Assembly: GCA_903929355.1 (NCBI GenBank)
Contig: CAIYUN010000041.1
Coordinates: forward strand, 10,539-74,538
From: an uncultured Opitutaceae bacterium
GTDB taxonomy: Bacteria; Verrucomicrobiota; Verrucomicrobiia; Opitutales; Opitutaceae
DNA: 64,000 bases
Direction of reading: 5' to 3'
Shown in pieces: positions 7,529-62,915 of the stretch; the first letter of the stretch is position 1; every line of letters begins with the position of its first letter. Position numbers and translations under genes: made by a program. The notes below the pieces were generated by a model. That model saw only the letters and a list, made by a program, of their open reading frames with translations. It had not been told where the DNA came from and ran no database searches.

Positions 7529-7530
7529 CC

Positions 7531-8709: not shown

Positions 8710-8772
8710 GGTCTTCCCATTGGACCTGGGCCATCCATCATGGCACCACGCGTCCCGGCCATGGTCCCGGTT

Positions 8773-8817
8773 CCGGAATCCAAATTCCAAAATCGAAATT
8801 CCAAAATCGAAATTTGC
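8773..8817. repeat. CCAAAAT/CGAAAT word tandem repeat inside the arn operon (arnB-arnC spacer)
   Basis: CCGGAATCCAAATTCCAAAATCGAAATTCCAAAATCGAAATTTGC. Same word family at 18383..18418(-), 37510..37546(+) and 40330..40375(-). Confidence 0.75.
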
Positions 8818-9759: not shown

Positions 9760-10664
9760 CCCCGCCCCCCCGCATCCTCTTCTTCGGCTACAGCGAGGTT
9801 GGCCACGACTGCCTGGCGCTGCTGCTGGAGCGCGACGACAACGTGATCGCGCTGATCACGCATGAGGACAACCCGCACGAGAAAATCTGGTTCCAGACCC
9901 CGGCGCTCGCCGCGCGGGCAAAAGGCATTCCCGTTTTCACGCCGGAAAAGGTGAACACCCCCGAGTGGATCGAGAAAATCGCCGCGCTGCGGCCCGACCT
10001 GATTCTCTCCGTCTATTACCGGAACATGATCAGCTCCAAAATCCTCGCCCTGCCGACGCTCGGGGCGTGGAACATGCACGGCTCGCTTCTGCCCAAATAC
10101 CGCGGCCGCGCGCCCATCAACTGGGCGGTCCTGCAGGGTGAGCCGCGCCTTGGCATGACCCTCCACCGCATGGTCAAGGCCGCCGACGCCGGCGCCATCG
10201 TGGACCAGGACGGCGTGGACCTCGGCCCGCGCGACACCGCCGAGCAGGCCTTCCGCAAGGTCCTGCCCTGCGCGCGCCGGGTGCTCGCCCGGCAGATCGA
10301 CGCGCTTCTCGCCGGCACCGCCCCCGAAACCCCGCAGGATGAGACTCAGGCGACCTATTTTGGCGGGCGCAAACCGGAGGACGGCCGCATCTCCTGGACG
10401 CAGTCCTCGGCCCAGATCTTCAACCTCATCCGGGCCGTGACCGACCCATATCCCGGGGCCTTCACCGACGTCGGTGATGCGCGCCTGATGGTCTGGTGGG
10501 CCGAGCCGGACTCGCCCGCCACGCGGGGCCGCCATGGCCGCCCCGGCGAAATCCTCTCCCTCGCCCCGCTCGTCATCGCCACCGCCAACGGTGCCTTGGA
10601 ACTCACCAAAACCGAGTGGCGAACCGCCCCCGTGCCCGAGTTGCGACTCGGACAGGTCTTGTAG
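9756..10664 (+). CDS. arnA: formyltransferase, equivalent to the ArnA N-terminal domain only
   Basis: Start overlaps the arnC stop by 4 nt. THEDNPHEK...NMHGSLLPKYRGRAPINWAVLQGE...GMTLHRMV closely mirrors the E. coli ArnA formyltransferase domain. No dehydrogenase/decarboxylase domain follows. Confidence 0.85.
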   Translation: MTPPPRILFFGYSEVGHDCLALLLERDDNVIALITHEDNPHEKIWFQTPALAARAKGIPVFTPEKVNTPEWIEKIAALRPDLILSVYYRNMISSKILALPTLGAWNMHGSLLPKYRGRAPINWAVLQGEPRLGMTLHRMVKAADAGAIVDQDGVDLGPRDTAEQAFRKVLPCARRVLARQIDALLAGTAPETPQDETQATYFGGRKPEDGRISWTQSSAQIFNLIRAVTDPYPGAFTDVGDARLMVWWAEPDSPATRGRHGRPGEILSLAPLVIATANGALELTKTEWRTAPVPELRLGQVL

Positions 10665-13371: not shown

Positions 13372-13455
13372 TGCAACCATCTGCCCCAGCAGCCAAAAGG
13401 CCTTGTCTCGCCCGCGGCGCGGGCGAAGGCTCCTGATCAATCCCCCCCGAGCAGA

Positions 13456-17526: not shown

Positions 17527-17701
17527 TTAACCTCGGATAACACGGATGAACCCGGATCCGGCGATTAACTGGGTTGCTTCCGAGGGTAGGGCGTGACCAA
17601 CGCCGGGCGCGCCGTCTGGGAGGTTTGGTTGCCCTGGCCCAAATTCAGGTCGGACGAGCCATCGGCATTGTCCGTGTCCATCCGCGTTATCCGTGGTTAA
17701 A
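17527..17701. repeat. MITE-like element with CACGGAT-word inverted arms around a GAGGGTAGGGC-type REP
   Basis: Left arm TTAACCTCGGATAACACGGATGAACCCGGATCC; right arm TGTCCGTGTCCATCCGCGTTATCCGTGGTTAAA. The interior is similar to 5041..5100. Confidence 0.6.
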
Positions 17702-17794
17702 TTTCTGCCTCCCGCCATCAATCCGTGGTTGGCTCCGTGACCTCCCGGTCTGATCCTCTGTGCCCTCTGTGCCCCACTCCGGTTGTCCGCCCGC

Positions 17795-18331
17795 TCAGCC
17801 CTTCGGCTTCTCGGTCTTTCCTTCCGCCGGCTCGCGGGAGATAAAATCCAGGATGTTCTCGGCCTGCTTGGTGGTCACGCCGGTGTCGTGATAGACGATC
17901 TTGCCATCCTTGACGACATACGCCTCGCGGCTGGCGAAGAGCAGGCTGCTCTGGCCGAAAGCCTTGATGACCTTCCGGTCGGTATCGGCGATCAGGGTGA
18001 AGGGGAAATGGTTGTCGGCCTTGAACTTCTTCTGCGCCTCGACCGAGTCGGTGCTCACCCCGAAGATGGCAACCCCCTTCTGGGCGAGTTCGGCAAAGCC
18101 GTCGCGCAATGAGCAGCCCTGCGCGGTGCAGCCGGGCGTGCCGGCCTTGGGGTAAAAATAGACCACGGTGTATTTGTTCTTCGCATAGACGTCGGCGAGG
18201 TTGAGGGTCGTGCCGGCATCGGTGGCAAGGCCGGTGACGACCGGCGCGACGCTGCCGATCTTGAGCGGGTCGCCGAAGAGCGCGTTGAACATGGTGAGGA
18301 AAAGGACGGTCGGAAGGACGAGACGGGTCAT
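17795..18331 (-). CDS. bcp: thiol peroxidase / peroxiredoxin Bcp, with signal peptide
   Basis: YFYPKAGTPGCTAQGCSLRD peroxidatic Cys motif; N-terminal hydrophobic leader. Confidence 0.9.
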   Translation of the reverse strand: MTRLVLPTVLFLTMFNALFGDPLKIGSVAPVVTGLATDAGTTLNLADVYAKNKYTVVYFYPKAGTPGCTAQGCSLRDGFAELAQKGVAIFGVSTDSVEAQKKFKADNHFPFTLIADTDRKVIKAFGQSSLLFASREAYVVKDGKIVYHDTGVTTKQAENILDFISREPAEGKTEKPKG

Positions 18332-18382
18332 GGCAGGCTATGGACCCTGCCGGGAGGAAAAAGTTCTGGCAAGCCCACGAGA

Positions 18383-18418
18383 GATTTTCGAATTTGGATT
18401 TTCGTTTTGGATTTAAGG
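18383..18418. repeat. CCAAAAT word repeat (inverted orientation)
   Basis: GATTTTCGAATTTGGATTTTCGTTTTGGATTTAAGG, upstream of bcp. Confidence 0.7.
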
Positions 18419-18450
18419 TCCATGCGGTGCTCAGCCTCAGGTCGCTTGCA

Positions 18451-18479
18451 CCAGCGCGTTGAGGTCAACTCGCTCCACC
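18451..18479. repeat. REP-A single unit
   Basis: CCAGCGCGTTGAGGTCAACTCGCTCCACC; overlaps the 3' end of ORF 18465..19121. Confidence 0.7.
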
Positions 18480-19121
18480 GGCCAATCCCGGCGCGCCGCC
18501 GCTTGGTGCCACCTCGGCGATTTCAGCCAGGTCGCACAAGATGTCCAAGATAGCCGGAATACGGGCGCAGAAATTGGCGTCGGAAAACGAGTCATCCAGT
18601 GGAATATACTTCACCAGGAATTCCGCCAACTCGAAGCGCCCCTTCAATCCGGCCGCATGCACCGCCAGGAGCTTCCCGCGCAATTCCGGGAGCAGCGCCA
18701 CCACAAAATATTCTGGTCGGTTCGACTGGACGAACCACGCGGCATCAAAGACCGCATCGCATGTGGCCAGACTGTGCCATCCTCCGATCTCCTCGCCGAT
18801 CTTGCTGAAACTGGTCCGCGTGACCAATTGGAATGTTAGACCGGTATCCTGCGTTGGCCGTGCCGAAATCGTGGGCTCGCTCGTTTGACGACCGGGCCCA
18901 CCCCAGCCGCTGATTTCGGTGAACACCTCGACTGTTTTACCGCGCAGGATGCCCGTCACCGAGCGCGGTCGGGCCACAAACTCCAGCCCAAGCTGTTCCG
19001 CCAGCCTGCGTAGGTTTTCCTCCGGCTTCACGCCCTGCCTAGTGTATCCCACAATCCATACTACAATGAACACGAGCCCGAATGCATCGGATATAAACAT
19101 CGGGAGCAGACTTTTATCCAT
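18465..19121 (-). CDS. hypothetical membrane-anchored protein
   Basis: 218-aa ORF with one N-terminal TM helix (FGLVFIVVWIVGY). Visibly lower GC than its neighbours. The 3' end runs into a REP copy. Confidence 0.5.
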   Translation of the reverse strand: MDKSLLPMFISDAFGLVFIVVWIVGYTRQGVKPEENLRRLAEQLGLEFVARPRSVTGILRGKTVEVFTEISGWGGPGRQTSEPTISARPTQDTGLTFQLVTRTSFSKIGEEIGGWHSLATCDAVFDAAWFVQSNRPEYFVVALLPELRGKLLAVHAAGLKGRFELAEFLVKYIPLDDSFSDANFCARIPAILDILCDLAEIAEVAPSGGAPGLAGGAS

Positions 19122-50368: not shown

Positions 50369-51380
50369 ACGAATGCCCCCAATCCCATGACTCGCCGAAA
50401 ACGCATTCTGATTGAGCTGCTCGCCCCGCCACCGCTCGGCGCGCTTTTGCTGCTGGCCCCTTGGTTGATTCAGAGCGCGTATGCCCAAGGGTTTGGATCA
50501 CCACTTGAACTATTGTCAGCGCTCGTCGGGCTGGTGCCATTTGCTACATTTATCTCTTATCTTTTTGCCGGCATTCCCTCCATTATTTTCACCGTGTTGA
50601 TGGAGTGCGGATTTTTCCTCGGTTTGAATCCGGCTTCGTGGCGGGTGCTGGGCTATTCAACCATTCTCGGGGGATTCATGGGATACTCTCTGCCCTTGAT
50701 CGCCTCGGAAGCACATCAGGATTCCATTGGCATTGATGAAGCCAGACTCGGTGTAACCGGACTTATGGTCGGATTCATCGTCGGCCTCATGATTAAAATC
50801 GCCTCGGCCAACAAGCAGAAGCGGTGCCAGACGGAATCCAATGCCGCCGCGTCTTTCGACATCCGCAGCGGTCCGCCGCCGCCCCCGAGCTGACAGCGCG
50901 CTGGTGCCAACCCTGATCGAACACGCAATCCCATAACCCGCCGCAAGCGCATCCTGATCGAGCTATTGGTGACACCGCCGCTGGCGGTGTTTCTGTGGTT
51001 GCTTTTCGCCCTGATCCTGGGAACGGCCGAGGAGGGATTTGGCTCACTGCCCGCGCTGTTGGAATATCTGTTCATCATCGTGCTCGCGATGTTGTTCTCG
51101 TATTTTTACGCCGGCATCCCGACCATAGTTTATACGTTGATGATGGAATGGAGATTCGCCCGGGGGCTGAATCCAGCCTCGCGGCAAATGGTGCGCTATT
51201 CCACCATGCTCGGGGGAATCATCGGCAGCTCGTTCTCTATAGTCTCCCTCTTCAAGGAACAGTCCCTTCACGCCGACTTCGGCGACTTTGCGACATTCCT
51301 TTACGGTGTTTCATTAATTACCGCCCCAGCTGGCATGGCTGTCGGATACATCATCGGCACCCTAATCCGCCGTGGCTCGA
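50328..51380. repeat. diverged tandem duplication (period ~543 nt)
   Basis: 50328..50440 aligns with 50870..50985: CCGCCGC-GAGCTGACAGCGCGCTGG...CAATCCCAT(G/A)AC-CGCCG-AA-CGCAT-CTGAT-GAGCT. The encoded proteins stay homologous for ~150 aa. Confidence 0.7.
50387..50893 (+). CDS. hypothetical membrane protein (tandem paralog 1)
   Basis: 168-aa, 4-TM ORF. Homologous to the N-terminal ~150 aa of the next gene (RRKRILIELL..., YxFAGIPxIxxTxxME, GLNPASxxxxxYST). Confidence 0.6.
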   Translation: MTRRKRILIELLAPPPLGALLLLAPWLIQSAYAQGFGSPLELLSALVGLVPFATFISYLFAGIPSIIFTVLMECGFFLGLNPASWRVLGYSTILGGFMGYSLPLIASEAHQDSIGIDEARLGVTGLMVGFIVGLMIKIASANKQKRCQTESNAAASFDIRSGPPPPPS

Positions 51381-52270
51381 CTGATAGCCACGAGTCAGAC
51401 GCAGCTGAATATGGCCAGGTCGCCGCCACCGCCGGCTTGTTTTTCGGACCGGTATTGGCGTGGGTTGCAACCCGTAACGCCCCGCCATGGGTGACGATGT
51501 GGGCGGTCGCAATTGTCGAGCTTTACGCATTGAAGCTGCTCACGCTCGCCGGGCGCTGGCGCACCGCGAGCGCCTGGAGGGTGGTGGCGTATCTTCTCCT
51601 CTGGCCGGGGCTGGATGCGGAGGCGTTTTTGGGCGAGCGGAAAAATGGACAGTTGGCGGGCACAACTGGGGAGTTGGGGTGGGCGGCGTTGAAATTCGGG
51701 TTCGGGCTCGCACTGTTTTATTGGGCGGCGGAACACCCGGCGAGCGCGTCCGCACCCTGGGCCGGAATGGTGGGAATCATCTTCTTCCTGCACTTCGGGT
51801 TGTTTCATGTGCTGTCATGGTGCTGGCGGAAATACGGGGTGGACGCGCGGCCGCTCATGCGGTCGCCGATCCTCGCGGTGTCGGTGGCGGAGTTTTGGGG
51901 CGAACGCTGGAATGTCGCCTTTGCGGAAACAGCGCGCCGTTATCTGCTCCGCCCGCTGGCGCGGCGCTGGGGAGTGCGTTGGGCGGGGGCATTTGTTTTC
52001 CTGGTGTCGGGCCTCGTGCATGAGACAGTGATCTCGCTGCCTGCGGGCGGTGGTTGGGGCGGACCGACTGGGTATTTCCTGCTGCAGGCGGCGGGGGTTG
52101 GGTTGGAAAAGAGCGCGGCCGGACGCCAGCTCGGACTGGGCGCGGGTGGCCGTGGGCGGGCGTGGATGCTGCTGGTGACCCTCGCACCGCTGCCGTTGAT
52201 GCTAAATGCCCCGTTCACCGAACGGGTGTTCCGGCCGATGCTGGAGGCGGCCGGCAGGTATCTGTCGTGA
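50966..52270 (+). CDS. membrane protein: paralogous N-domain fused to an MBOAT_2/wax-synthase-like acyltransferase domain
   Basis: C-terminal SVAEFWGERWNVAFAETARRYLLRPL...VSGLVHE resembles the MBOAT_2 motif. TTG start; the frame is open upstream to the TGA at 50891. Confidence 0.65.
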   Translation: MVTPPLAVFLWLLFALILGTAEEGFGSLPALLEYLFIIVLAMLFSYFYAGIPTIVYTLMMEWRFARGLNPASRQMVRYSTMLGGIIGSSFSIVSLFKEQSLHADFGDFATFLYGVSLITAPAGMAVGYIIGTLIRRGSTDSHESDAAEYGQVAATAGLFFGPVLAWVATRNAPPWVTMWAVAIVELYALKLLTLAGRWRTASAWRVVAYLLLWPGLDAEAFLGERKNGQLAGTTGELGWAALKFGFGLALFYWAAEHPASASAPWAGMVGIIFFLHFGLFHVLSWCWRKYGVDARPLMRSPILAVSVAEFWGERWNVAFAETARRYLLRPLARRWGVRWAGAFVFLVSGLVHETVISLPAGGGWGGPTGYFLLQAAGVGLEKSAAGRQLGLGAGGRGRAWMLLVTLAPLPLMLNAPFTERVFRPMLEAAGRYLS

Positions 52271-52419: not shown

Positions 52420-52833
52420 ATGAAACCAAATCCAGAGATTATCCTGAAGCTCGCGGCGGTCGCACATCTGGGGTTGATCGCGGCTGGGATGCTGATGCCA
52501 CGCGTGACCGGGCTGTGGGCCGAGCTGGCGAAGCTCGCGCCCTTTGCGCGGCGGCTGTTCTGCGTCTATTATGCTTTCATCGGGCTGTGCCTGGTCTCGT
52601 TCGGGCTCGGCTCGTGGTTGCTCGCGCCGGAGCTGGCCGGGGGCACCACGCTGGCGCGGGCGGTGTGCGGATTTCTCGCGGCATTCTGGTTTATCCGGCT
52701 GGTGGCGGCGATCTGGGTCTTCGACGTGAGGTCGTTCCTGACCACCCCTTGGCTGCGCCTCGGCTACCATGCGACCAACGTGGTGTTCGGCGCACTGCCG
52801 TTCGTGTACACGTGGCTGGCGCTGCGGGGGTGA
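52420..52833 (+). CDS. hypothetical membrane protein
   Basis: 137-aa ORF with 4 TM helices. Confidence 0.55.
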   Translation: MKPNPEIILKLAAVAHLGLIAAGMLMPRVTGLWAELAKLAPFARRLFCVYYAFIGLCLVSFGLGSWLLAPELAGGTTLARAVCGFLAAFWFIRLVAAIWVFDVRSFLTTPWLRLGYHATNVVFGALPFVYTWLALRG

Positions 52834-52893
52834 CAACGGACAACAAACGGATTTTTGGGTTGTCCATCCGGAGGCGACAGCTACTCTCATCGT

Positions 52894-53124
52894 ATGACCG
52901 CGCTGGCCGAAAAGATCAAACCGCAGTTCGCCGGCTTGTCCACCGCCGACCGCGCAGAGCTTGCGCGTTATCTCCTCGAATCGCTCGATGAGCCGGCCAA
53001 CCCTGCCGCCGGTCAACGGTGGGAAACCGAGCTGGCGCGCCGCGCGGATGAAATCCGTTCCGGTCGTGCGGAAGGCCGTCCCGTTGACGAGGCTCTGGCC
53101 GACCTGCGAAAACGATATTCGTGA
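52894..53124 (+). CDS. addiction-module antitoxin component (TIGR02574-like)
   Basis: ORF 52855..53124(+), Met at 52894. LSTADRAELARYLLESLDE...WETELARRADEIRSGRAEGRPVDEALADLRKRY is the typical pattern. Confidence 0.75.
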   Translation: MTALAEKIKPQFAGLSTADRAELARYLLESLDEPANPAAGQRWETELARRADEIRSGRAEGRPVDEALADLRKRYS

Positions 53125-53419
53125 AAAGGTATCTGCTCCACGGGAGGCCGAGCTCGAACTGAACGCCGCCATGGCCTATTATGAGGAGCAGCGGCCCGGT
53201 CTCGGGCTGGCTTTGCTCGCCGAGGTGGAACGCGCCGCTGAGATGATCCGCCATTTTCCCGCCGCGTGGCCGTTGCACGGGCCGGCCGGTCATCGCAAGG
53301 CGGTCTTGGTTGGTTTTCCTTTCGCGCTCCATTATTTGGAGCTGCCGGATGTGCTTTGGATCAGCGCGGTGGCCCATGCCAAGCGGGAGCCGTTCTATTG
53401 GCGCGATCGTACGTGCTGA
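53117..53419 (+). CDS. ParE/RelE family toxin (start unresolved; possibly frameshifted at the 5' end)
   Basis: Frame of ORF 52961..53419. EAELELNAAMAYYEEQRPGLGLALLAEVERAAEMIRHFP...HYLELPDVLWISAVAHAKREP is ParE-like. There is no canonical start at the expected position. Confidence 0.6.
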   Translation: MREKVSAPREAELELNAAMAYYEEQRPGLGLALLAEVERAAEMIRHFPAAWPLHGPAGHRKAVLVGFPFALHYLELPDVLWISAVAHAKREPFYWRDRTC

Positions 53420-53464: not shown

Positions 53465-55805
53465 TCACGGCGCGGGCGCGCCCGCGCCGTCGTCGATTGT
53501 CAGCCGCGAAAAATCCAGGGTCGACTCCGACCCGGGCGGGCGGCGCAGCTCCAGCGTGTTTGCACCCGCCTGACAGGGCAGCGAGAGCTCAAAGTCGTGC
53601 GTGCCGGCCGTCGCAAACTCAAGCCGCTGGGCCGGCCCGCCGTTGAGGGAAAGCTCGATCCACCCCGCCGCCGTGGTGGTCCGCACCGTACCCGCAATCC
53701 GGGCGCGGCCCACCCAGCCGGGAAAAAATACCCGGGCGAGCTCCGCTCCCATCACCCGGTGGCTCACGGGCGCGCCGATGTCGATCGGCTCGTCCACCGT
53801 GAGCGGGAGGTTGGCATCGGCCGTCCAGCCCGCAAACGCCGGCAGTCGTCGCTCCCAGCCGAGCGCCTGCACCCGCGCCTCGGGGAGATACAGCCCGTCG
53901 CCGGCACCCGCTCCCACCAGCCGGTAGCGCGCGCCGTCCCCCAGCGTTTCGAACAGCGGGCAGGGTGCGCCGAGCTTGAGGACGATGAGGGCCCCGGGGT
54001 TGCGGATGGAATCGGTCGCCGGCGCGCCGTAAAAATGCACCCCGGGAATCTCAGCCTGCAGCCGTCGCATCAGCGGGTAGGCGATGTCGTGCAGGGCGAC
54101 GAACTCGACGTCGCTTACGCCCGCCACGCGCGCCAGCTCCGCCAGAGCCGTGTCGCGCGCGAGGAAGTCCGCATGGTAGCGGTAGTAATTGATGTCCCGC
54201 GGGGTCTCGAAGACCGTCGGCGAGGTCCAAATCGGACGGGCGGACGTCTCCCGGTCGGGCCACCACACCAGCAAACCCAGCGCCGCCGCGCCCCACGCGG
54301 CCGGGCCGCGCCACCGCCCCGGCAGCGCGCCGACCAGGCCGGCCGCGAGCAACGAGCCGGTGACAAAGCCGGGCAACTGGAGCCGCGCGCCCCACAACTG
54401 CCAGCGCACCGCCGCGCAATACAACAGGGCCATGGCCGCGACCACGGCGGCCAGCCAGCGCCAGTCACGCCCGCCCCGCCAGAGGCACGCCGCCAGCACG
54501 GAAGCCCCGATGAGCAGCAAGTGCCAAGGGGCACCGGCCACGGTCTCGGCGCGCGGCCACCACTCCACGGAAAACTTGAGGATCCACAACGTGCTGCGCG
54601 GGTCGTCGGCCGAAATTCCAAGCCAGCCGTGGGCCGCGCGCACCGCCCCGGCCAGCCCCGAGTTCCAGGCCGGCCAGGGCCCGGCGAAATGCGAGGCGGC
54701 GTCGCGGAGGGCGTTGGAGGCGATGATCGCCGGCGTGACGGCGGCATTGGCCTGTTCGCCGCCGTCCTCGGCATGCTGCACGCCCAGCGGATGGGTGGGA
54801 CCATACCAGGCGAGGTTGCGGGCGAAAAACGGGGCCGCCAGCAGCACCACCACCATTGCGGCCAGCGCACCGGCCCGGTTGGCCGCCCCCCCACCCCGCC
54901 GCCCGCCGCCACGCGAACCAGCCGGCCAGCAGCAACGGAGGCGCAAAAAGGAACGCCGTGCTCTTGGTGAGTAGTGCCAATGCGAGGGTGACGCCCACGA
55001 GGACCGAGTCACCCCGGGTTGGTGGCGCGGCGGCGGCCCGCGCACGCGCGACCTGCCAGAGCAGCAGCGCGAGCCAGAATGCGCCCTGCAGGTCGTTCTT
55101 GCCGTTGGACGCCTCGTGCCAAGCCATCGGCAGGCAGACGACCAGCCAGGCCGCCAGGGCCGCCGGAGCGCGTGCGAGACCGAGTGTACGCGCGGTCTGC
55201 CATCCCACCAAGGGCAACAGCGCATAGGCAAACCACTGCGGCAGATTCGCCCAATGGTCGCCTCCGGTGAGGGCGAGAAACTGCAGCCCGATGACCTCGG
55301 CCAGCGGCGGCATCAGCAACTGACGCTCACTGAGGGTTACAAAATGCTCCAGACTGCCCTGCTGCAGCCACATGAGCTGGCGCGGCAAATGATAGCTGAG
55401 CACATCCACGGTGACGGGCGGCGCGGCGACCGCGGTGACGAGCGTGAGCAGCAGCAGCACGCCGATGGCGGCGGCCACGGACCACTCGAAAAGGCGGGCG
55501 GGACAACTGGAATCCGACTCGGAAGGCGTGTTTGAGTCAACCCGCCCCACCATCGTGCGCCAGGCGCGCAGGCCCCAGGTGATGGCCGCCACTGCGAGCA
55601 CCAGCCAGGCGGCGCGGAGCGGCGCGGGCCGGAGCGCGCCAAAGAGCCCCAGCACGTTGGCCAGCACCCACACGCCCGCCGCCCAAAAGATCGCCGCGCG
55701 CAGCAACGCTCCGGACCAGCCATCGCCCCGGGCGCGCCGTCCGGTGGCCAGCCCGCCAAAGGCCAAGAGCGGCAGGACGCCCCAAAGTTCGCCGAGCAGG
55801 GTCAT
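53465..55805 (-). pseudogene. GT-C (PMT_2/ArnT-like) membrane glycosyltransferase with C-terminal periplasmic domain, interrupted by a frameshift at a C7/G7 run
   Basis: ORF 54465..55967(-) carries the sensible N-terminal part (Met 55805; VDVLSYHLPR, LLTKSTAFLFAPPLLLAGW). ORF 53465..55231(-) carries the sensible C-terminal part (ALAAMVVVLLAAPFFARNLAWYG...). The sense switches at 54886..54892. Confidence 0.75.
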
Positions 55806-55940
55806 AGTTTCGCCTGCCACCAGACACGCGCGCGGCGCGCGCGGCGAGCCGAAAGGCCGGATGGCAATGACCCTCTGGTTCCGACTTCGCGTTCTCCGCG
55901 ACCTTCCTGTTAGAACCTCCGTTTCAGTTTCCGCCTGATT

Positions 55941-55977
55941 GATCCATCCGTGGTTATCCGTGTCCATCCGTGGTTAA
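55941..55977. repeat. CACGGAT word repeat (inverted orientation) in the divergent promoter region of the GT-C gene and the aminosugar operon
   Basis: GATCCATCCGTGGTTATCCGTGTCCATCCGTGGTTAA. Confidence 0.7.
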
Positions 55978-56074
55978 TACCTCCGTCCGTTGCCTCCGTT
56001 ACCTCCTGTTCAAGTTTTCTTCCGTCATGGTTTCACGCTCGACAGGGCGGCGGCGTGGCGGCGAGGCTGGCCCC

Positions 56075-57106
56075 ATGAGCGACTCCCCTTCCGTGGTCCG
56101 CATCGGCGTGATCGGCTTCGGCCAGTGGGGGCCCAACCACGTCCGCAACTTCGGCCTGTTCGAGGGCTGCGAGGTGCGCCGGATCTGCGACTCTTCGGAC
56201 GCGCGCCTCGCCGCGGCGCGGAAGTTCGCGCGGGGCGTCAGCGTCACCAAGAATCCCGCCGACATCACCGAGGCGGATGACATTGACGCCGTCGTTGTCG
56301 CCACGCCGACCGGCACCCACCACGCGCTCGTGCGGGCCGCGCTCCTGGCCGGCAAGGATGTGCTCTGCGAAAAGCCCCTGGCGCGCACCGCCGCCGAGTG
56401 CCGCGAGCTGGCTGCGCTCGCGGCCCAGCACCGGCGCGTGCTCATGGTCGGCCATGTGTTCCTCTACAACCCCGCCGTGCTCCACCTGAAGACCGACCTC
56501 GATCGCGGCGAGCTGGGCCGCATCTATTACATGGACGCGGTGCGGACCAACCTTGGCCCCGTGCGGTCCGATGTCGGCGCGATCTACGACCTCGCGAGCC
56601 ATGACATCTCCATCTTCAACTTCCTGCTCGGGGCGGAGCCGCTGGAGGTGTCCGCCACCGGCAGCAGCGTGCTGCAAAAAGGGATCGAGGACGTCGGTTT
56701 CCTCACGCTTCATTACCCGGGCAACATCGTGTGCCATGCGCACATTTCCTGGCTGAACCCGCGCAAGGTCCGCCAACTGACCATCGTGGGCGACCACAAG
56801 ATGGCGGTCTGGGACGACATGAACAACCTGGAGCCGATCCGCCACTACGACAAGGGCGTGACCGCCGACCATTACTCCTCGTTCGGCGAGTTTCACATGA
56901 TCCTGCGCGACGGCCAGATCACAATCCCGAAGGTGAAAATGTCCGAGCCGCTGCAGCAGCAGGACGCCGACTTTGTTGACTGCGTCCGCACCCGCCGCAC
57001 GCCGGTGTCGGATGCCCGCCGCGGGCTCGCCGTCGTGCTGGCACTGGAGGCCGCCTTGGAGTCGCTGCACCACCACGGCCGCACCACCCGGGTGGCGAAC
57101 CCATGA
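56075..57106 (+). CDS. Gfo/Idh/MocA sugar-nucleotide oxidoreductase (WbpB/GnnA-like)
   Basis: ORF 55970..57106(+), Met at 56075. VRIGVIGFGQWGPNH Rossmann motif, EKPLA motif. First gene of a coupled operon. Confidence 0.8.
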   Translation: MSDSPSVVRIGVIGFGQWGPNHVRNFGLFEGCEVRRICDSSDARLAAARKFARGVSVTKNPADITEADDIDAVVVATPTGTHHALVRAALLAGKDVLCEKPLARTAAECRELAALAAQHRRVLMVGHVFLYNPAVLHLKTDLDRGELGRIYYMDAVRTNLGPVRSDVGAIYDLASHDISIFNFLLGAEPLEVSATGSSVLQKGIEDVGFLTLHYPGNIVCHAHISWLNPRKVRQLTIVGDHKMAVWDDMNNLEPIRHYDKGVTADHYSSFGEFHMILRDGQITIPKVKMSEPLQQQDADFVDCVRTRRTPVSDARRGLAVVLALEAALESLHHHGRTTRVANP

Positions 57107-57834
57107 GCGGGACCGCGCCGTGTCCGCTCACGGTGGTCGTGCCCGCCTTCAACGAGGAGGCGCTGCTCGCCGGGACCGTGCTCGGCCTGCGCGAGGCGCT
57201 CACCGCCCTTGGTCTGGCCGCTGAGATTGTGATCGTGAACGACGGCAGCCGCGACGGCACGGGCGCGATCGCCGACGGGCTCGCCGCCCGGGACGCCGCG
57301 CTCACCGTCTGCCACCAGCCAAACCAGGGGCTCGGCGGCGCGCTCCGCACCGGCTTTGGCCGCGCCCGCGGCGAATACGTCCTCACCTGGCCGGCCGACA
57401 TGCCCGCCACCCGCGCGGACCTGGCGCCGTTCGTGGCCAAGCTCGGGGCGGCCGATGTGCTCGTGGGTGTGCGCGCCCGGCGCGCCGGCTACAACCCCCT
57501 CATGCGGTTCAACTCGTGGCTCTACCCCCACCTCGTGATCGCGCTCTTTGGGCTGCGCCTGCGCGATGTGAACTGGATCCAGGTCTACCGCACGGCGCTG
57601 ATCCGGCGGGTGACGCTCACCCAGCGCGGCATCCCGATGCTGGTCGAGACGCTGGTGCGCCTGCGCGACCTCGGCGCGAAGTTTGCGGAGGTGCCCTGCG
57701 AGATGCAGCCCCGGGCCGCAGGCATAGCGTCGGCCTCGCGGCTCAAAATCATGTGGCGAACTTTGCGCGGCCTGCTGCAATTCTGGTGGCAATGGCGGCG
57801 TGACCGCCCGCAAACTCCCGCCGCGCATGGCTGA
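57103..57834 (+). CDS. GT2 polyprenyl-phosphate glycosyltransferase-like (DPM1/ArnC-type catalytic domain, no TM tail)
   Basis: ATGA overlap with the upstream stop. LTVVVPAFNEEALL...IVNDGSRDGT...PADM motifs. Confidence 0.75.
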   Translation: MSGTAPCPLTVVVPAFNEEALLAGTVLGLREALTALGLAAEIVIVNDGSRDGTGAIADGLAARDAALTVCHQPNQGLGGALRTGFGRARGEYVLTWPADMPATRADLAPFVAKLGAADVLVGVRARRAGYNPLMRFNSWLYPHLVIALFGLRLRDVNWIQVYRTALIRRVTLTQRGIPMLVETLVRLRDLGAKFAEVPCEMQPRAAGIASASRLKIMWRTLRGLLQFWWQWRRDRPQTPAAHG

Positions 57835-58831
57835 ACCCATCCTCTCTCCCTCCGCCCTGATCGCACCCGACGCCACGGTGCGGTCCGGCGCCGTCGTCGG
57901 GGCCAATGTCCGCATCGGCCCACGATCGGTGATCGGTCACGGGGTGGTGTTGCACGAGGACACGGTGGTCGGCGCGGACGTGACGGTGTTCGACCACGCG
58001 GTGCTGGGCCGCCGGCCGCTGGGGGTCGGCAGCATGACGCGGCCGCCGCGCACCGACCTGGGGCCGCTGCGACTCGGCGACGGCTGCGTGGTGGGCGCAG
58101 GCGCGGTGCTGTACCGCGGCACCACCATCGGGCGCGAGACGCTGCTCGGCGACCTGTGCTCGATCCGCGAGGAATGCGTGGTCGGCGACCGGTGCATCAT
58201 CGCGCGCGGCGTCACGGTGAATTACGCGACCCGGATCGGCCACCGCGTGAAGATTCAGGACAACACCCACCTGACCGGCAACATGGTCATCGAGGACGGG
58301 GTGTTCGTGAGCGTGCTCGTCGCGACCACCAACGACAACAGCATGGACCGAGGCCCGCACGACCCGGCGAAATTGGGCGGCCCGGTGATCCGGCGCGGCG
58401 CGAGCGTCGGCGCGGGCGCCGTCCTGCTGCCGGGCATCACCATCGGCGAATATGCGGTCGTCGGCGCGGGCGCGGTCGTCAGCCAAGACGTGCCGCCGCG
58501 CCAACTGGTGGCGGGCAACCCCGCCCGGGTGGTTAAGGCCGTGCCAGCCGAATGGCTGCCGAAGGAAGCGGCCCCACCCGCCGCACTCCCACCCAGCCTG
58601 GACCTGCCGGAGTTCATCGAGGCCTTCGCCTGGGAGCTGCAGATCGCCCCCGGCCCGCTCACCGCCGCCACCCGCCTCGCCGACATCCCGCGCTTCGACT
58701 CGATGGGCCGGCTCGCGTTCATGGCCATGATCGACACCCGGCTCGGCCTGGTCCTCGACGCCGACGCGCTCGACGGCTGCGCCACCCTGGGCGACCTGCA
58801 TGATTTGGTGACCAAGACCGGCGGCGGCTGA
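57827..58831 (+). CDS. left-handed beta-helix (hexapeptide) acyltransferase fused to a C-terminal acyl-carrier-protein-like domain
   Basis: ORF 57800..58831(+). The ATG at 57827 overlaps the GT2 stop. Hexapeptide repeats run through aa ~20-245. The C-terminal ~75 aa contain IPRFDSMGRLAFMAMIDTRLGLVLD, a DSx phosphopantetheine-type motif with Ser codon at 58700..58702. Confidence 0.7.
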   Translation: MAEPILSPSALIAPDATVRSGAVVGANVRIGPRSVIGHGVVLHEDTVVGADVTVFDHAVLGRRPLGVGSMTRPPRTDLGPLRLGDGCVVGAGAVLYRGTTIGRETLLGDLCSIREECVVGDRCIIARGVTVNYATRIGHRVKIQDNTHLTGNMVIEDGVFVSVLVATTNDNSMDRGPHDPAKLGGPVIRRGASVGAGAVLLPGITIGEYAVVGAGAVVSQDVPPRQLVAGNPARVVKAVPAEWLPKEAAPPAALPPSLDLPEFIEAFAWELQIAPGPLTAATRLADIPRFDSMGRLAFMAMIDTRLGLVLDADALDGCATLGDLHDLVTKTGGG

Positions 58832-58847
58832 GGGCAGGGCGCCTCCC

Positions 58848-59882
58848 ATGAGCACCGACCGCCGGGCCACGATCGCCGCCATCCGCAGCCAGCTGCCCGC
58901 GCGGGTCGTCACCAACGCGGAGCTGGCGCCCGACGTGGGCTGGAGCGCGGAGGAGATTTTTGCCAAGACCGGCATCGCCCGGCGCCATGTCGCCGGGCCC
59001 GACGAATGCGTCTCCGACCTCGCGACGGCCGCCGCCGAGAAGTTGTTGCGCGACACCGGCACCGATCGCGCGCGGGTGGATTTTCTCATCCTCTGCACGC
59101 AGACGCCCGACCACCTGCTGCCGGCCACGGCCTGCCTCGTCCACGCCCGCCTCGGGCTGGGCTCGTCGTGCGCGGCCTTTGACCTCAACCAAGGCTGCTC
59201 CGGCTACCTTTACGCACTGGGAGTGGCCAGCGCGCTCATCCGCAGCGGCATGGCGACCCAGGGGCTCGTGCTCACCGGCGACACCTACACCAAGTTCATC
59301 AACCGACAGGACCGCTCGGTGCGCACGCTGTTCGGCGACGCCGCCACCGCCACGCTGGTGCGCGCGACCGACGGGCCCGGACTCGACCATTTCGTGCTCG
59401 GCACCGACGGCGCCGGCGCGCGCAACCTCATCATCCCCGCCGGCGGCACGCGGCTGCCTCGGAGCGCCGCGACCGCTCAAACCACGACTGACGCCTCCGG
59501 CAACACCCGCTCGTCGGACGACCTGCTGATGAACGGAACCCAGATCTTCAATTTCACGCTCCAACGGGTGCCCGGGCTGGTCGCCGGGGTCCTCGCGGCC
59601 GCCGGCCGCCGGCCGGAGGAGATCGACTGGTTCGTCTTTCACCAGGCCAACCGCTTTATGTTGGACCACCTGCGGCAGAAGCTCGGCGTGCCGCCCGAAA
59701 AGATGGTCTGGTTTCTGGAAAACACCGGCAACACGGTGTCTTCCACCATCCCGCTCGCGCTGGAACACGCGGCCGCCGGGGGAAAATTCTCTCCTGGCCA
59801 GCGCGTGCTCCTCGCCGGCTTCGGGGTCGGTTACTCCTGGGGTGGCGCGCTGCTCGAATGGCCCGCAGACTATCTGCCATGA
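58848..59882 (+). CDS. 3-oxoacyl-ACP synthase III (FabH-like KAS III)
   Basis: Catalytic triad contexts [16 protein letters not shown] and [12 protein letters not shown]; FabH length. Confidence 0.85.
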
Positions 59883-61003
59883 ATCTCCGCGTTCCCTTCC
59901 AAGACCTGCCACTCCAGACGCGCGGCCTGCGCGCCGAGCTCGACCCGGCCATCGGCGCGGTGCTCGAGCACTGCCAGTTCATCCACGGGCCCGAGTGCGC
60001 GGCGTTTGAGGGGGAGTTCGCCGCCTTCGTCGGCTCCGCCCACGCGGTGGGCCTCGGCTCGGGGACTGACGCGCTCGAGTTCATCCTGCGCGGGCTGGGC
60101 CTCGGGGCGGGCGACGAGGTCATCACGGTGGCCAACAGCTTCATCGCCTCCGCCGAGGCGATCTCCCACGCCGGCGCCACGCCGGTGCTGGTGGACTGCG
60201 GGCCCGACGACTATCTGATTGATCCCGCCGCCGTCGCCGCGGCGATCACCCCGCGCACGAAGGCGGTGCTGCCGGTGCATCTCTATGGGCAGCCGGCCAA
60301 TATTGAGGCCATCGCACCCCTCTGCGAAAAGCACGGGCTCGCGCTGATTGAGGACGCGGCGCAGGCCCATGGCGCGACGCTGGCCGACGGCCGGGCCTGC
60401 GGGACGCTCGGGGTCGCGGCGGGCTTCAGCTTTTATCCTGGCAAAAACCTGGGCGCGTTTGGCGATGGCGGGGCGGTGACGACCAACGACCCTGCGCTCG
60501 CGCACCGGCTCCGCCTGCTGCGCAACTGGGGCTCGGTGGTGAAATACCACCACGAGATCCCCGGCTACAACTCGCGCCTCGACACCCTCCAGGCGGCGGT
60601 GCTGCGGGTGAAGCTGCGCCACCTCGCCGGATGGAACGACGCCCGCCAAACTGCGGCCGGCTGGTATGGCGAGGAGCTGCGCGACTGTCCCGGGCTCGAG
60701 CTGCCCGTCGTGATGCCGTGGTGCGGCCGGCACGCCTGGCACCTTTATGTCGTGCGGATCAAAGACCGCGACCGCGACGCCATGGCGCGCCAACTGCTCG
60801 AGGCCGGCGTGCAGACCGTCGTGCACTACCCGGTCCCGATCCACCTGCAGCCGGCCTACGCGAGCCTCGGCCACCGGCCGGGGGCGTTCCCCAACGCCGA
60901 ACGCGCCGCGCGGTCGGTGCTCTCGCTGCCCATGTTCCCGGAGATCACACGCGAGCAGGTCGCGCATGTGGCCGCGAGCCTGAGGAAGATTCTCGAGGGG
61001 TGA
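59879..61003 (+). CDS. DegT/DnrJ/EryC1/StrS sugar aminotransferase (WbpE/GnnB/ArnB-like)
   Basis: ORF 59858..61003(+). The ATG at 59879 overlaps the KAS III stop (ATGA). [23 protein letters not shown]-lysine motif. Confidence 0.85.
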
Positions 61004-61008
61004 TCACC

Positions 61009-61815
61009 ATGGCGCAGAGCGATCCAGAAAAGCCTTCATCGGACGGATCGGACCGATCCGTCGGATCCGACCGATTGTCCCCGACGCAACCCCGGCGACT
61101 GCGGCCCAGCGGAGGTTATCGCAACCTGCGCAGCTACCAGGTGGCCACGGTGGTTTACGATGCCACGGTGTCGTTCTGCGACCGCTTCGTGGACAAGCGC
61201 AGCCGCACGCATGACCAGATGGTGCAGGCGGCGCGCAGCGGTGGCAAGAATATCGCCGAGGGCAGCCGGGCCGCCGCCACCACCAGCCAGACCGAGTTGC
61301 GGCTGGTCAACGTGGCACGGGCCAGCCTCGAGGAACTGCTGCTGGATTATGAGGATTACCTGCGGCAGCACCGCCAGCGCCAGTGGCACAAGGACGACCC
61401 CGAGGCGCGCGCGGTGCGGGCCGTGGGGCAACCGGGGGCAAGTGATCCGACCGCACAGAGCGATCCCGGCAGACACTGGAAAATCTACGCGCGCTGGCTT
61501 GAGCACACCGACCCGGCGGTGGTGACCAACACGCTGATCTGCCTGATCCACCAGACCAACTACCTGCTCGACCAGCAGATCAGCGCGTTGGAGCGCGATT
61601 TTGTGCAGGCGGGAGGCTACAGCGAGCAGCTGGCGGCCGCGCGCATGGCGGAGCGGCAGAAGCCACCATCGCGACCGACCACACCCGCAGCGCCCAACTG
61701 CCCGCGCTGCGCCAAGCCGATGGCCTTGCGCACCGCCCGCACGGGTGCGCAGGCCGGCTCACAGTTTTGGGGTTGTTCGGGCTACCCCGCGTGCAAGGGC
61801 ACGCGGGCCCTTTAG
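61009..61815 (+). CDS. four-helix-bundle (23S rRNA IVS protein-like) protein with suffix domain and C-terminal topoisomerase-type C4 zinc finger
   Basis: In-frame Met at 61009 of ORF 60631..61815. YRNLRSYQVATVVYDATVSFCDRF...MVQAARSGGKNIAEGS...LRLVNVARASLEELLLDYEDYL; C-terminus CPRCAKPM...FWGCSGYPACKG. Confidence 0.75.
   Translation: MAQSDPEKPSSDGSDRSVGSDRLSPTQPRRLRPSGGYRNLRSYQVATVVYDATVSFCDRFVDKRSRTHDQMVQAARSGGKNIAEGSRAAATTSQTELRLVNVARASLEELLLDYEDYLRQHRQRQWHKDDPEARAVRAVGQPGASDPTAQSDPGRHWKIYARWLEHTDPAVVTNTLICLIHQTNYLLDQQISALERDFVQAGGYSEQLAAARMAERQKPPSRPTTPAAPNCPRCAKPMALRTARTGAQAGSQFWGCSGYPACKGTRAL
61037..61077. repeat. GATCCGA word repeat (inside the 5' coding region of the four-helix-bundle gene)
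   Basis: CATCGGACGGATCGGACCGATCCGTCGGATCCGACCGATTG. Shares a 21-nt perfect core GACCGATCCGTCGGATCCGAC with 61822..61875. Confidence 0.75.
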
Positions 61816-61937: not shown

Positions 61938-62915
61938 ATGCTCACCCTGCTCTTTCCCCCCCCCACCCGCCTGCTCGCGACTGCCGCCGCGCTGCTGCTC
62001 AGCCTCGCTCCCGCGCGCGCCGCGGATTATCTTTTCAGCTACTTCACCAATAACGGCGAGGACGGCCTGCACCTCGCCTGGAGCACCGACGGCTACACCT
62101 GGGCGGCCCTCAACGGCGGCAAAAGCTTTCTCGCCCCCAAGGTCGGCAAGGAAAAGCTCATGCGCGACCCCTGCCTGCTCCTCGGCCCCGACGGCACGTT
62201 CCGCATGGTCTGGACCGACTCCTGGTCCGACAAATCCATCGGTTACGCCTCCTCGAAGGATCTCCTCACCTGGTCGGAACAGACCGCCGTGCCGGTGATG
62301 GCCACCGAGCCCACCGCGCGCAACTGCTGGGCGCCCGAGGTGGACTACGACGCGAAGCAGGGGGACTACGTCATCTTCTGGGCAACCACCATCACCGGCA
62401 AATTTCCGGAAACCGCCACGCCGGAGGACCAAGCGCACGAGAGCGGCTACAACCACCGGATCTACCGCACCACGACCAGGGACTTCGCGACCTTCACCCC
62501 GACGCAGCTCTTTTATGAGCCGGGGTTCAACGTCATCGATGCCACCATGCTCGCGGCCAACGACCGGTTTTGGCTCATCGTCAAGGACGAGACGATCACG
62601 CCGGTGCCAAAGAAAAACCTGCGACTCGCCTCCAGCGACAGCCCGGAGGGGCCGTTCACCAACCTGTCCGCCCCGTTCAGCCCCGCCGGCGTCTGGGCCG
62701 AGGGGCCGACCGCGCTCAAGGTGGGCGACGACTATGTGGTCTATTACGACATGTACCGGGACCATAAATATGGCGCCGTGCGCTCGCGCGACCTGAAGGC
62801 TTGGGAGGACGTGAGCGCCAGGCTGCACTTCCCCGCCGGCATGCGCCACGGCACCGCACTCGCCGTGCCGCATGCGGTGGTGGAGAAGCTGCAGGCTCTG
62901 CCGGGGAAAAGCTGA
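61938..62915 (+). CDS. glycoside hydrolase family 43-like protein (secreted)
   Basis: ORF 61767..62915(+), Met at 61938 with signal peptide. YLFSYFTNNGEDGLHLAWSTDGYTW...LMRDPCLLLGPDGTFRMVWT. Confidence 0.7.
   Translation: MLTLLFPPPTRLLATAAALLLSLAPARAADYLFSYFTNNGEDGLHLAWSTDGYTWAALNGGKSFLAPKVGKEKLMRDPCLLLGPDGTFRMVWTDSWSDKSIGYASSKDLLTWSEQTAVPVMATEPTARNCWAPEVDYDAKQGDYVIFWATTITGKFPETATPEDQAHESGYNHRIYRTTTRDFATFTPTQLFYEPGFNVIDATMLAANDRFWLIVKDETITPVPKKNLRLASSDSPEGPFTNLSAPFSPAGVWAEGPTALKVGDDYVVYYDMYRDHKYGAVRSRDLKAWEDVSARLHFPAGMRHGTALAVPHAVVEKLQALPGKS

Follow-up and report, generated by a model that had tools for sequence, protein, structure and literature searches.

A five-gene operon and a divergently transcribed glycosyltransferase gene at positions 53465-61003 of a 64,000-nucleotide stretch from an uncultured Opitutaceae bacterium (contig CAIYUN010000041.1 of assembly GCA_903929355.1) were analyzed for a possible role in making and delivering an N-acylated amino sugar. 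The whole stretch is referred to here as the window, and all coordinates of the locus are counted along it. The plus-strand genes encode a Gfo/Idh/MocA oxidoreductase, a family 2 glycosyltransferase (GT2), a hexapeptide (LbH) acyltransferase fused to an acyl carrier protein (ACP) domain, a FabH-type beta-ketoacyl-ACP synthase III (KAS III) and a pyridoxal phosphate (PLP) aminotransferase of the DegT/DnrJ/EryC1 family (DegT). The minus-strand gene encodes a membrane glycosyltransferase of the GT-C class. Coverage of this genome is the 64-kb window, and the contexts compared are few in number and were selected by the length of their contigs. The features of the locus are as follows.

53465-55805, minus strand: GT-C glycosyltransferase gene, frameshifted (switch of coding frame, full-length homologs, model of a homolog)
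54886-54892, minus strand: homopolymer of seven G (C7 on the plus strand), site of the frameshift (frame analysis, repaired translation)
55806-56074, no strand: divergent intergenic spacer, 269 bp
56075-57106, plus strand: Gfo/Idh/MocA oxidoreductase, 343 aa, probable nucleotide-sugar 3-dehydrogenase (Pfam, NCBIfam, PDB)
57103-57834, plus strand: GT2 of the polyprenyl-phosphate glycosyltransferase type, 243 aa (Pfam, PDB, AlphaFold2/Foldseek, hydropathy)
57827-58597, plus strand: LbH (hexapeptide) N-acyltransferase domain with Pro/Ala-rich linker (Pfam Hexapep, PDB)
58598-58831, plus strand: ACP domain fused to the LbH domain (PF00550, profile search)
58700-58702, plus strand: predicted phosphopantetheine serine, Ser292 in FDSMGRL (motif, alignment)
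58848-59882, plus strand: KAS III (FabH-type) condensing enzyme, 344 aa (Pfam, NCBIfam, PDB, motifs)
59879-61003, plus strand: DegT/DnrJ/EryC1 PLP aminotransferase, 374 aa, C3-type (Pfam, PDB)

All five plus-strand genes proved to be genuine, with coupled translation. G+C at third codon positions (GC3) is 0.89-0.92 in all five open reading frames (ORFs; 56075-61003), which is coding-type for this genome (window G+C about 67%), and the starts at 56075 and 59879 are consistent with the lengths of close homologs. Oxidoreductase and GT2 genes overlap by ATGA (57103-57106), GT2 and LbH-ACP genes by 8 nt (57827-57834), and KAS III and DegT genes again by ATGA (59879-59882), with a 16-nt gap between the end of the LbH-ACP gene at 58831 and the start of the KAS III gene at 58848. 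Both the coding signature and the overlap coordinates thus reproduce the coupled operon of the original prediction, which had been made from the letters of the sequence, and a Pfam scan matched each product to its expected family (GFO_IDH_MocA, Glycos_transf_2, Hexapep, ACP_syn_III/ACP_syn_III_C and DegT_DnrJ_EryC1). The divergent spacer, put earlier at about 270 bp, measures 269 bp. The spacer gave no Rfam match; across the scanned 52-62 kb region there was a single, sub-threshold match (ALIL), and no sigma-70-like promoter consensus was found in the same 10 kb.

Judged by their sequence relatives, the oxidoreductase, DegT and LbH proteins fit a 3-amino-sugar pathway. The oxidoreductase matched Pfam GFO_IDH_MocA at 97.9 bits, and its best NCBIfam model was the archaeal UDP-GlcNAc 3-dehydrogenase (173.7 bits, a sub-cut-off score). 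In the PDB it matched 3q2k and 3q2i, which we take to be WlbA, at about 43-52 bits. The match to 7bvj, GnnA according to a preprint, was full-length and reached 80 bits, and UDP-GlcNAc 3-dehydrogenases appear to be the nearest relatives of the enzyme. DegT scored 403.9 bits against Pfam DegT_DnrJ_EryC1, and its best PDB matches, DesV (2oga, 377 bits), QdtB and WbpE, are all C3 aminotransferases; the match to ArnB was just 181-196 bits, about half of the DesV score. The WbpB/WbpE/WbpD (and GnnA/GnnB) logic that had been proposed for the locus therefore holds in that a C3-type DegT, a 3-dehydrogenase-like oxidoreductase and a QdtC-like LbH are encoded together.

The third gene encodes a 334-aa protein in which an LbH domain (Pfam Hexapep, 107.8 bits) is followed by a carrier tail. 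Best PDB matches of the LbH domain were QdtC (3fs8), the Bordetella lipopolysaccharide (LPS) acetyltransferase 3mqg, and 7s43, with weaker matches, at about 80 bits, to the acyl-ACP-dependent LpxA and LpxD. LbH homologs of about 250 aa are widespread and nearly always adjoin a DegT gene. The 77-residue tail had been called carrier-protein-like, with a PP-binding match as the test, and it passed PF00550 when searched alone (24.5 bits vs a cut-off of 20.8; 20.3 bits within the whole protein), as did all five of the homologous tails and stand-alone proteins. A profile of the tail and four homologs retrieved carrier proteins in 37 of 37 PDB matches (best 2lml, E = 1.2e-7). The DS pair is invariant in the tail alignment, and the tail serine aligns with the attachment serine of the DSL motif in solved ACPs. 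By these comparisons the tail can be regarded as a true ACP domain. It is homologous to separate 76-78-aa genes that lie between LbH and KAS III in two other loci, L001 and L010. A search of 1.84 billion representative proteins gave 176 tail relatives at E <= 1e-3; the best 150 of these are nearly all stand-alone proteins of 73-82 aa and include no LbH fusion, so the LbH-ACP fusion seems to have arisen only recently within this clade.

KAS III matched ACP_syn_III (PF08545) at 81.5 bits and ACP_syn_III_C (PF08541) at 118.9 bits. The intact Cys, His and Asn contexts noted from the sequence are present in the expected order and spacing as NQGC(117), FH(265)QAN and GN(295)T, which assigns Cys117, His265 and Asn295 by motif, and the protein carries an insertion of roughly 20 residues. 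Its NCBIfam score exceeded the cut-off for NF006829 (300.7 vs 249 bits) and fell short of that for TIGR00747 fabH (256.3 vs 292.1 bits), and in the PDB it matched the Burkholderia paralog 3gwa best, at 333 bits, with E. coli FabH far behind at about 180 bits. A housekeeping fabH was considered and ruled out, given the score below the TIGR00747 cut-off, the nearest relationship to the 3gwa paralog and the fact that the gene moves with the sugar cassette.

The GT2 protein matched Glycos_transf_2 (PF00535) at 83.9 bits, and its NDGSxDxT region reads VIVNDGSRDGT, in which D47, G48, S49, D51 and T53 do not vary among 27 homologs. ArnC, DPMS and GtrB were the top PDB sequence matches, and the same three proteins filled all of Foldseek ranks 1-19 for its AlphaFold2 model (pLDDT 89.4; query-normalized TM-score 0.62-0.76 over 224-242 columns). 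Model and hydropathy gave no transmembrane (TM) segment; instead, a W/R-rich amphipathic C-terminal helix was predicted at residues 214-234. An ArnC-like protein encoded in the same window has two TM helices, unlike the 243-aa GT2. Soluble or peripheral polyprenyl-phosphate GT2s are known, for example PpgS and eukaryotic DPM1, so C-terminal TM helices do not strictly define this GT2 type. By its modeled fold, the enzyme is best classed as a polyprenyl-phosphate-type GT2, and its earlier description as a soluble DPM1/ArnC-type enzyme was borne out.

Close relatives (KAS III 92-93% identical) share all five genes and their order, with intact copies 88-95% identical to those of the window. GT2 orthologs are abundant in Opitutaceae, and loci L091-L096 each have one (66-76% identity) that stands between oxidoreductase (68-80%) and DegT (61-77%) orthologs. 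What occupies the acyl slot differs among these loci: an LbH protein of 158-159 aa in L093 and L096 or of 225 aa in L094; a GNAT protein, a small ACP-like protein, an SDR and an AMP-ligase in L095 (9747-12741); and in L091/L092 (8728-14039) GNAT, ACP-like, SDR and AMP-ligase genes together with LuxE and LuxC. We take the GNAT/ACP-like/SDR/ligase(/LuxE/LuxC) slot to resemble the rfbK-O genes for perosamine N-acylation in Vibrio cholerae O1; such a module implies a further unusual N-acyl group. The oxidoreductase, GT2 and DegT orthologs form a conserved Opitutaceae cassette with a variable N-acyl module.

GT-C genes adjoin this cassette in six of eight distinct contexts, and the gene-neighborhood check of co-occurrence thus came out in favor of a conserved oxidoreductase-GT2-DegT unit with GT-C neighbors. 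In L092, L093 and L094 a PMT/PMT_2 protein of 607-643 aa (58-66% identical among the three) is encoded directly upstream of and co-directionally with the cassette. The window GT-C has an intact ortholog of 871 aa (57%) in L096, where it stands divergent to the cassette in the very arrangement of the window. The window GT-C was considered as a universal partner of the cassette and rejected, L091-L094 using the other, 607-643-aa PMT_2 family, which has no BLAST match to it. No copy of this second family occurs in the 64-kb window.

In the window itself, the GT-C gene is not a single ORF. GC3 showed that the minus-strand coding frame switches near 54900, and the switch falls within the run GGGGTGGGGGGG, which contains the G7 tract at 54886-54892. 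Deletion of one G from this tract restores a 779-aa protein. Proteins of 760-870 aa from Opitutaceae metagenome-assembled genomes (MAGs) and isolates are colinear with 99-100% of it, at 45-77% identity, and several of these homologs bear the NCBI names GT39, ArnT-family or 'phospholipid carrier-dependent glycosyltransferase'. The window protein gave zero Pfam matches, whether repaired (E <= 10) or as two halves (0.01), and no NCBIfam match. Among 33 homologs, PMT was matched in 14 and PMT_2 in 12, so the label PMT_2 is valid only for the relatives, the window protein itself having no Pfam match. Of the divergent PMT_2/ArnT-like gene proposed at first, the divergence and the GT-C identity stand, the latter resting on full-length Opitutaceae homologs and on the model of one of them, while the single ORF and the protein's own PMT_2 match do not.

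The repaired protein consists of a multi-TM N-terminal part with the conserved loop TVDVLSYHLPRQ and a C-terminal beta-sandwich domain. The loop conforms to TVDVLxYHLPRQ with its invariant Asp; this residue, D155 in TVDV, is retained by all 33 homologs and by the window protein. The AlphaFold2 model of P0121, a 77%-identical homolog (pLDDT 90.4), had ten PDB matches at E <= 1e-3, all of them GT-C enzymes (AftD, EmbA/B/C, ArnT and Pmt4), and a structure search with the model matched its C-terminal beta-sandwich to CBM6/CBM35 carbohydrate-binding modules (CBMs). In the modeled homolog, this CBM6/35-like domain points to a glycan acceptor rather than to lipid A.

The frameshift is probably genuine and not a one-off assembly error, because the truncated 463-aa product is recorded from at least five contigs and in two sequence variants, the second being a 99%-identical product from another assembly. 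Runs of G or C of at least 7 nt are rare in the window (4 in 64 kb vs about 39 expected from base composition), and those present may be slipped-strand switches. The four runs lie at 9765-9771, 13442-13448, 54886-54892 and 61956-61964, three of them in glycan-related genes: the first codons of a formyltransferase gene, the GT-C frameshift site, and a GH43-like gene, in which the run is a C9 tract in the signal-peptide region.

Comparison with the 93%-identical relative L002 revealed a difference on the GT-C side. There the GT-C gene is present, and a gene for a 420-aa polytopic membrane protein without Pfam match (1055-2317 of L002, minus strand) stands between it and the operon; the window has 172 bp in place of 1483 bp and lacks this gene. 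A 39% homolog of the 420-aa protein is encoded in L094 (about 17600-18700, minus strand), adjoining a 40% homolog of the window GT-C. It is possible that this protein is a third component of the system, a flippase or a partner, which was lost in the window. One could go further and regard the locus as decaying and inactive, with a GT-C pseudogene, a lost membrane-protein gene and an operon that is only a remnant. This would be in line with a frameshift fixed in several contigs, with the missing 1.3-kb gene of L002, and with the toxin-antitoxin pair and accessory genes at the flanks. We consider it very improbable, however, as the five genes are intact, keep a strong codon-position bias and their start/stop overlaps, and are 88-95% identical to intact copies in relatives, some of which retain the operon without an adjacent GT-C.

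Outside the Opitutaceae cassettes, the acyl module was followed through 80 GTDB loci with LbH relatives, in which DegT is nearly always adjacent and an oxidoreductase often. ACP and KAS III of the window type were found in only one of these, L010 from a Planctomycetota MAG; LbH, ACP, KAS III, oxidoreductase and DegT recur together in L001 and L010. The L001 GT2 was examined as an ortholog of the window GT2 and ruled out by its 25% identity over 92 aa. In L010 (8858-20049), the LbH, ACP, KAS III, DegT and oxidoreductase genes stand between TPR-GT2 and TPR-GT41 genes and beside fliD, a setting that suggests the attachment of an N-acylated 3-amino sugar to flagellin. In more distant KAS III neighborhoods (L012, L025, L035, L049 and L050) the window type of ACP was not detected. 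Locus L025, from a Verrucomicrobia MAG, is of the dTDP-3-aminosugar type: RmlB-like, FdtA, KAS III, 3-hydroxyacyl-CoA dehydrogenase, LbH and DegT genes are found in a Wzy-type locus, with KAS III, dehydrogenase and LbH in this order. Four further LbH relatives (P0077, P0080, P0094 and P0096; about 46% identical) carry an N-terminal fusion to a MaoC-type enoyl-CoA hydratase, another way of linking acyl transfer with the supply of a 3-hydroxyacyl donor.

The MaoC-LbH fusions and the L025 locus point to C4 donors of the 3-oxo or 3-hydroxy type. A longer chain would follow if KAS III used a medium- or long-chain acyl-CoA primer, giving a lipid-like N-(3-oxoacyl) amino sugar made in LpxD-like fashion as a glycolipid or membrane anchor. 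The resemblance of the LbH domain to LpxA and LpxD at about 80 bits, the position of KAS III in the 3gwa paralog clade with its insertion of roughly 20 residues, and the AMP-ligase/LuxC/LuxE modules of other cassettes, which are typical of fatty-acyl handling, would all be compatible with this. Such a product nonetheless seems distinctly improbable: the operon has no elongating ketosynthase, dehydratase or enoyl reductase, and the MaoC fusions, the 3-hydroxyacyl-CoA dehydrogenase neighbor and the viosamine precedent described below hint at C4 units.

The L010 and L025 settings also bear on how the sugar is used. If the operon did no more than supply an N-acylated nucleotide sugar for cytoplasmic glycosylation, whether of O-antigen or exopolysaccharide or of flagellin or another protein, GT2 would be a Leloir enzyme and the GT-C neighbors coincidental. 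The L010 module beside TPR-GT2, TPR-GT41 and fliD, the related L025 module in its Wzy-type locus and the modification of flagellin in the viosamine precedent agree with such a role, as do the broken GT-C of the window and the lack of a nearby GT-C in the relatives L087-L090; these genomes are rich in GT-C genes, and neighbors may arise by chance. We nevertheless hold it to be rather unlikely, given that the top 19 structural and the best sequence matches of GT2 are polyprenyl-phosphate glycosyltransferases and that a GT-C flanks the orthologous cassette in six of eight contexts, in two conserved arrangements.

The reading that we prefer, with a probability of roughly 0.55, is that the operon represents a variant of a cassette found in Opitutaceae, which would decorate an envelope glycan with an N-acylated 3-amino sugar by way of a lipid-linked donor. 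In this pathway, the Gfo/Idh/MocA enzyme would oxidize C3 of a UDP-hexose, most likely UDP-GlcNAc, and DegT would aminate it to give, for example, UDP-GlcNAc3N. A housekeeping phosphopantetheinyl transferase (PPTase) and malonyl transferase would activate and load the LbH-fused ACP, and KAS III would condense an acyl-CoA primer (in the simplest case acetyl-CoA) with malonyl-ACP to a beta-ketoacyl group (in the simplest case acetoacetyl) on the ACP. A reductase encoded elsewhere may convert acetoacetyl to 3-hydroxybutanoyl; because the operon has no reductase, the acyl group would either stay 3-oxo or be reduced by such an enzyme. The LbH domain would then take the acyl group off the carrier domain of the same protein and attach it to the C3 amine, the peripheral GT2 would load the acylated sugar on undecaprenyl phosphate and, after flipping, a GT-C would add it to a periplasmic acceptor. 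A polysaccharide is a likely acceptor because the neighboring GT-C has a CBM-like domain, as in GT136 (PMC11127046). With the adjacent GT-C out of frame, this last step would need another GT-C or be off. For the N-acylated amino sugar on a polyprenyl-phosphate and envelope route that the original prediction had proposed, the protein families, the GT2 fold and the GT-C contexts are in agreement; lipid A as the acceptor is disfavored by the CBM-like domain.

Several observations weigh against this assignment of the operon to lipid-linked glycan decoration. Family resemblance is the basis for predicting sugar, nucleotide, acyl chain length and acceptor alike, and the oxidoreductase scored below every NCBIfam cut-off; substrates of the kanosamine-pathway kind (UDP-glucose or a sugar phosphate) would also be possible for it. 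Genes for a reductase, PPTase, malonyl transferase, flippase or deacylase were not found in the operon and its flanks, the adjoining GT-C is out of frame in this genome, and other homologs of it (59% and 48% identical) are encoded far from any such cassette. The closest relatives, L087-L090, keep the operon in wholly different flanks without a GT-C nearby, and because these flanks differ entirely from those of L002 and the window, the operon behaves as a unit placed at differing sites. Finally, outside Opitutaceae the pairing of the LbH-ACP-KAS III module with a polyprenyl-phosphate GT2 does not hold, since the GT2 of L001 is non-orthologous and that of L010 is a TPR-GT2.

More tentatively, the preferred reading could be extended to a lineage-wide Opitutaceae glycan decoration by a 3-acylamido sugar delivered on polyprenyl phosphate, with the N-acyl group varied by module swaps in a fixed oxidoreductase-GT2-aminotransferase frame. 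The swapped modules might supply a plain acetyl group, a beta-ketoacyl group made in cis on LbH-ACP by KAS III, or a ligase/LuxCE-derived acyl group, and together with a possible poly-G switch in the GT-C gene they would form an O-antigen-like generator of diversity whose target is the acyl group of one side-chain sugar. The alternative acyl modules suggest surface variation at the level of the acyl substituent in a little-studied soil and freshwater phylum, which is relevant to recognition by phages and predators. If the reading is correct, LbH-ACP is a sugar N-acyltransferase with its own acyl donor, convenient for studying how LbH enzymes read acyl-ACP, and the genes are parts for glycoengineering of N-acyl sugars.

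Genes of accessory type border the locus on either side. An 'Unstab_antitox' antitoxin gene and, after it, a small toxin-like ORF (52855-53419, plus strand) are the immediate neighbors of the GT-C gene on its 3' side, and a gene for a 23S_rRNA_IVP/Zn-ribbon protein follows DegT (61030-61815). Three membrane proteins are encoded within 3 kb of the GT-C gene: an MBOAT_2 membrane O-acyltransferase of 434 aa, preceded by a 168-aa protein whose sequence resembles its N-terminus (50387-52270, plus strand), and a 137-aa protein with three TM-like segments by hydropathy and without family match (52420-52833, plus strand).

No close match to a characterized O-antigen or capsule locus, which had been named as a finding that would speak against a new system, was seen among the homologs and loci examined. 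The sugar part of the operon corresponds to WbpB/WbpE/WbpD of P. aeruginosa, WlbA/WlbC/WlbB of Bordetella and GnnA/GnnB of Acidithiobacillus and Leptospira, which have the same combination of a 3-dehydrogenase, a C3 DegT and an LbH acting on UDP-HexNAc. Unlike in these pathways, the operon contains no UDP-GlcNAc 6-dehydrogenase or 2-epimerase. Their acyl donor is acetyl-CoA, whereas the donor predicted here is the fused ACP loaded by KAS III; on sequence grounds, the fused ACP and KAS III argue for a donor other than acetyl-CoA. Their products moreover reach O-antigen or lipid A via cytoplasmic enzymes and not as a polyprenyl-phosphate monosaccharide.

With the Arn pathway the locus shares an aminotransferase, N-acylation of an amino sugar, a GT2 acting on undecaprenyl phosphate and a periplasmic GT-C. 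However, the Arn amine is on C4 of a pentose and its acyl group is a formyl from N10-formyl-THF, whereas the amine here is predicted on C3 of a hexose and the acyl group from ACP. The ArnA decarboxylase, the deformylase ArnD, ArnE/F and an ArnT with Arnt_C are all absent from 53465-61003; GT2 lacks the two C-terminal TM helices of the ArnC type, and the GT-C, of about 780 aa with a CBM-like domain, has no BLAST relation to the ArnT-like protein of the same window. Of the Arn/Gtr logic originally proposed, transfer to a lipid by GT2 followed by a GT-C can be kept, but membership in Arn cannot, in view of the C3 DegT and the missing ArnA, ArnD and ArnE/F. A second, more Arn-like operon had also been reported in the window, and it was found at 5840-10664 (plus strand), with an ArnT-like GT-C (PMT, PMT_2 and weak Arnt_C matches), a DegT, a GT2 of 339 aa that ends in two TM helices, and a formyltransferase (Formyl_trans_N/C); an aldo/keto reductase gene follows. 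Neither an ArnA decarboxylase domain nor ArnD or ArnE/F turned up near it.

The Arn analogy raises the option that the N-acyl group of the locus is itself transient, a protecting group comparable to the Arn formyl group or to the acetyl group of GalN/GlcN in Francisella and Bordetella, which would be removed after lipid loading to leave a cationic amine. ArnC accepts only the N-formylated sugar, and an Arn-like operon lies in the same window. This option appears hardly probable at all: no deacylase or deformylase gene occurs in or beside any version of the cassette, and the swapping of elaborate acyl modules would be pointless for a group that is discarded.

For the delivery of the sugar, the closest parallels to lipid-linked decoration by the cassette are three-component systems (GtrA/B/C, CsbB/GtcA/YfhO, GacI/J/L, PpgS/Rv3779 and FlmF2/NaxD/FlmK), which have the same pairing of a lipid-sugar synthase with a GT-C outside the cytoplasm. 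The PPPRS/MATE/GT136 system likewise pairs a lipid-sugar synthase with a GT-C that acts on a finished glycan, and the C-terminal CBM of its GT-C binds polysaccharide (PMC11127046). No flippase candidate was identified at the window locus. Unlike the three-component systems compared, the operon itself encodes four dedicated enzymes of donor-sugar synthesis and N-acylation, and its acyl module differs among related genomes.

We found no characterized system with the same combination of parts and no other LbH-ACP fusion. If the preferred reading is correct, the operon joins 3-amino-sugar synthesis, ACP/KAS III-dependent N-acylation and lipid-carrier/GT-C glycosylation, for which there is no characterized example. 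The acylation step is nearest to that of the viosamine island of P. syringae pv. tabaci, where the 4-N-(3-hydroxy-1-oxobutyl)-2-O-methyl-viosamine on flagellin depends on an aminotransferase (vioA), a KAS III (vioS), a member of the acetyltransferase family (vioB), a 3-oxoacyl-ACP reductase (vioR) and acp, with dTDP-N-acetoacetylviosamine as the proposed intermediate (PMC3927599). The island also contains vioM and vioT, and the flagellin glycosylation island of P. aeruginosa PAK has the homologous orfA-orfE (PMC3927599). ACP/KAS III-dependent N-acylation is so far known genetically only from such Pseudomonas flagellin glycans. The viosamine pathway has its amine at C4 of a dTDP-6-deoxyhexose, uses a free-standing ACP of 69 aa and, in VioB, an LbH protein of the NeuD/PglB/VioB class, and requires a dedicated 3-oxoacyl reductase, vioR, whereas in the window the amine is predicted on C3, the ACP is fused to an LbH of the QdtC/WlbB class and the operon is without a reductase. 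Viosamine is also transferred to flagellin by a soluble transferase, without a polyprenyl-phosphate GT2 or a GT-C. Compared by description, the two systems have in common the four parts that would together place a C4 beta-keto or beta-hydroxy acyl group on a sugar amine, namely a DegT, a KAS III, a hexapeptide acyltransferase and a small ACP of their own; the earlier statement that no characterized pathway combines these parts therefore stands for the whole combination, but for the acylation logic the viosamine island is a precedent (PMC3927599).

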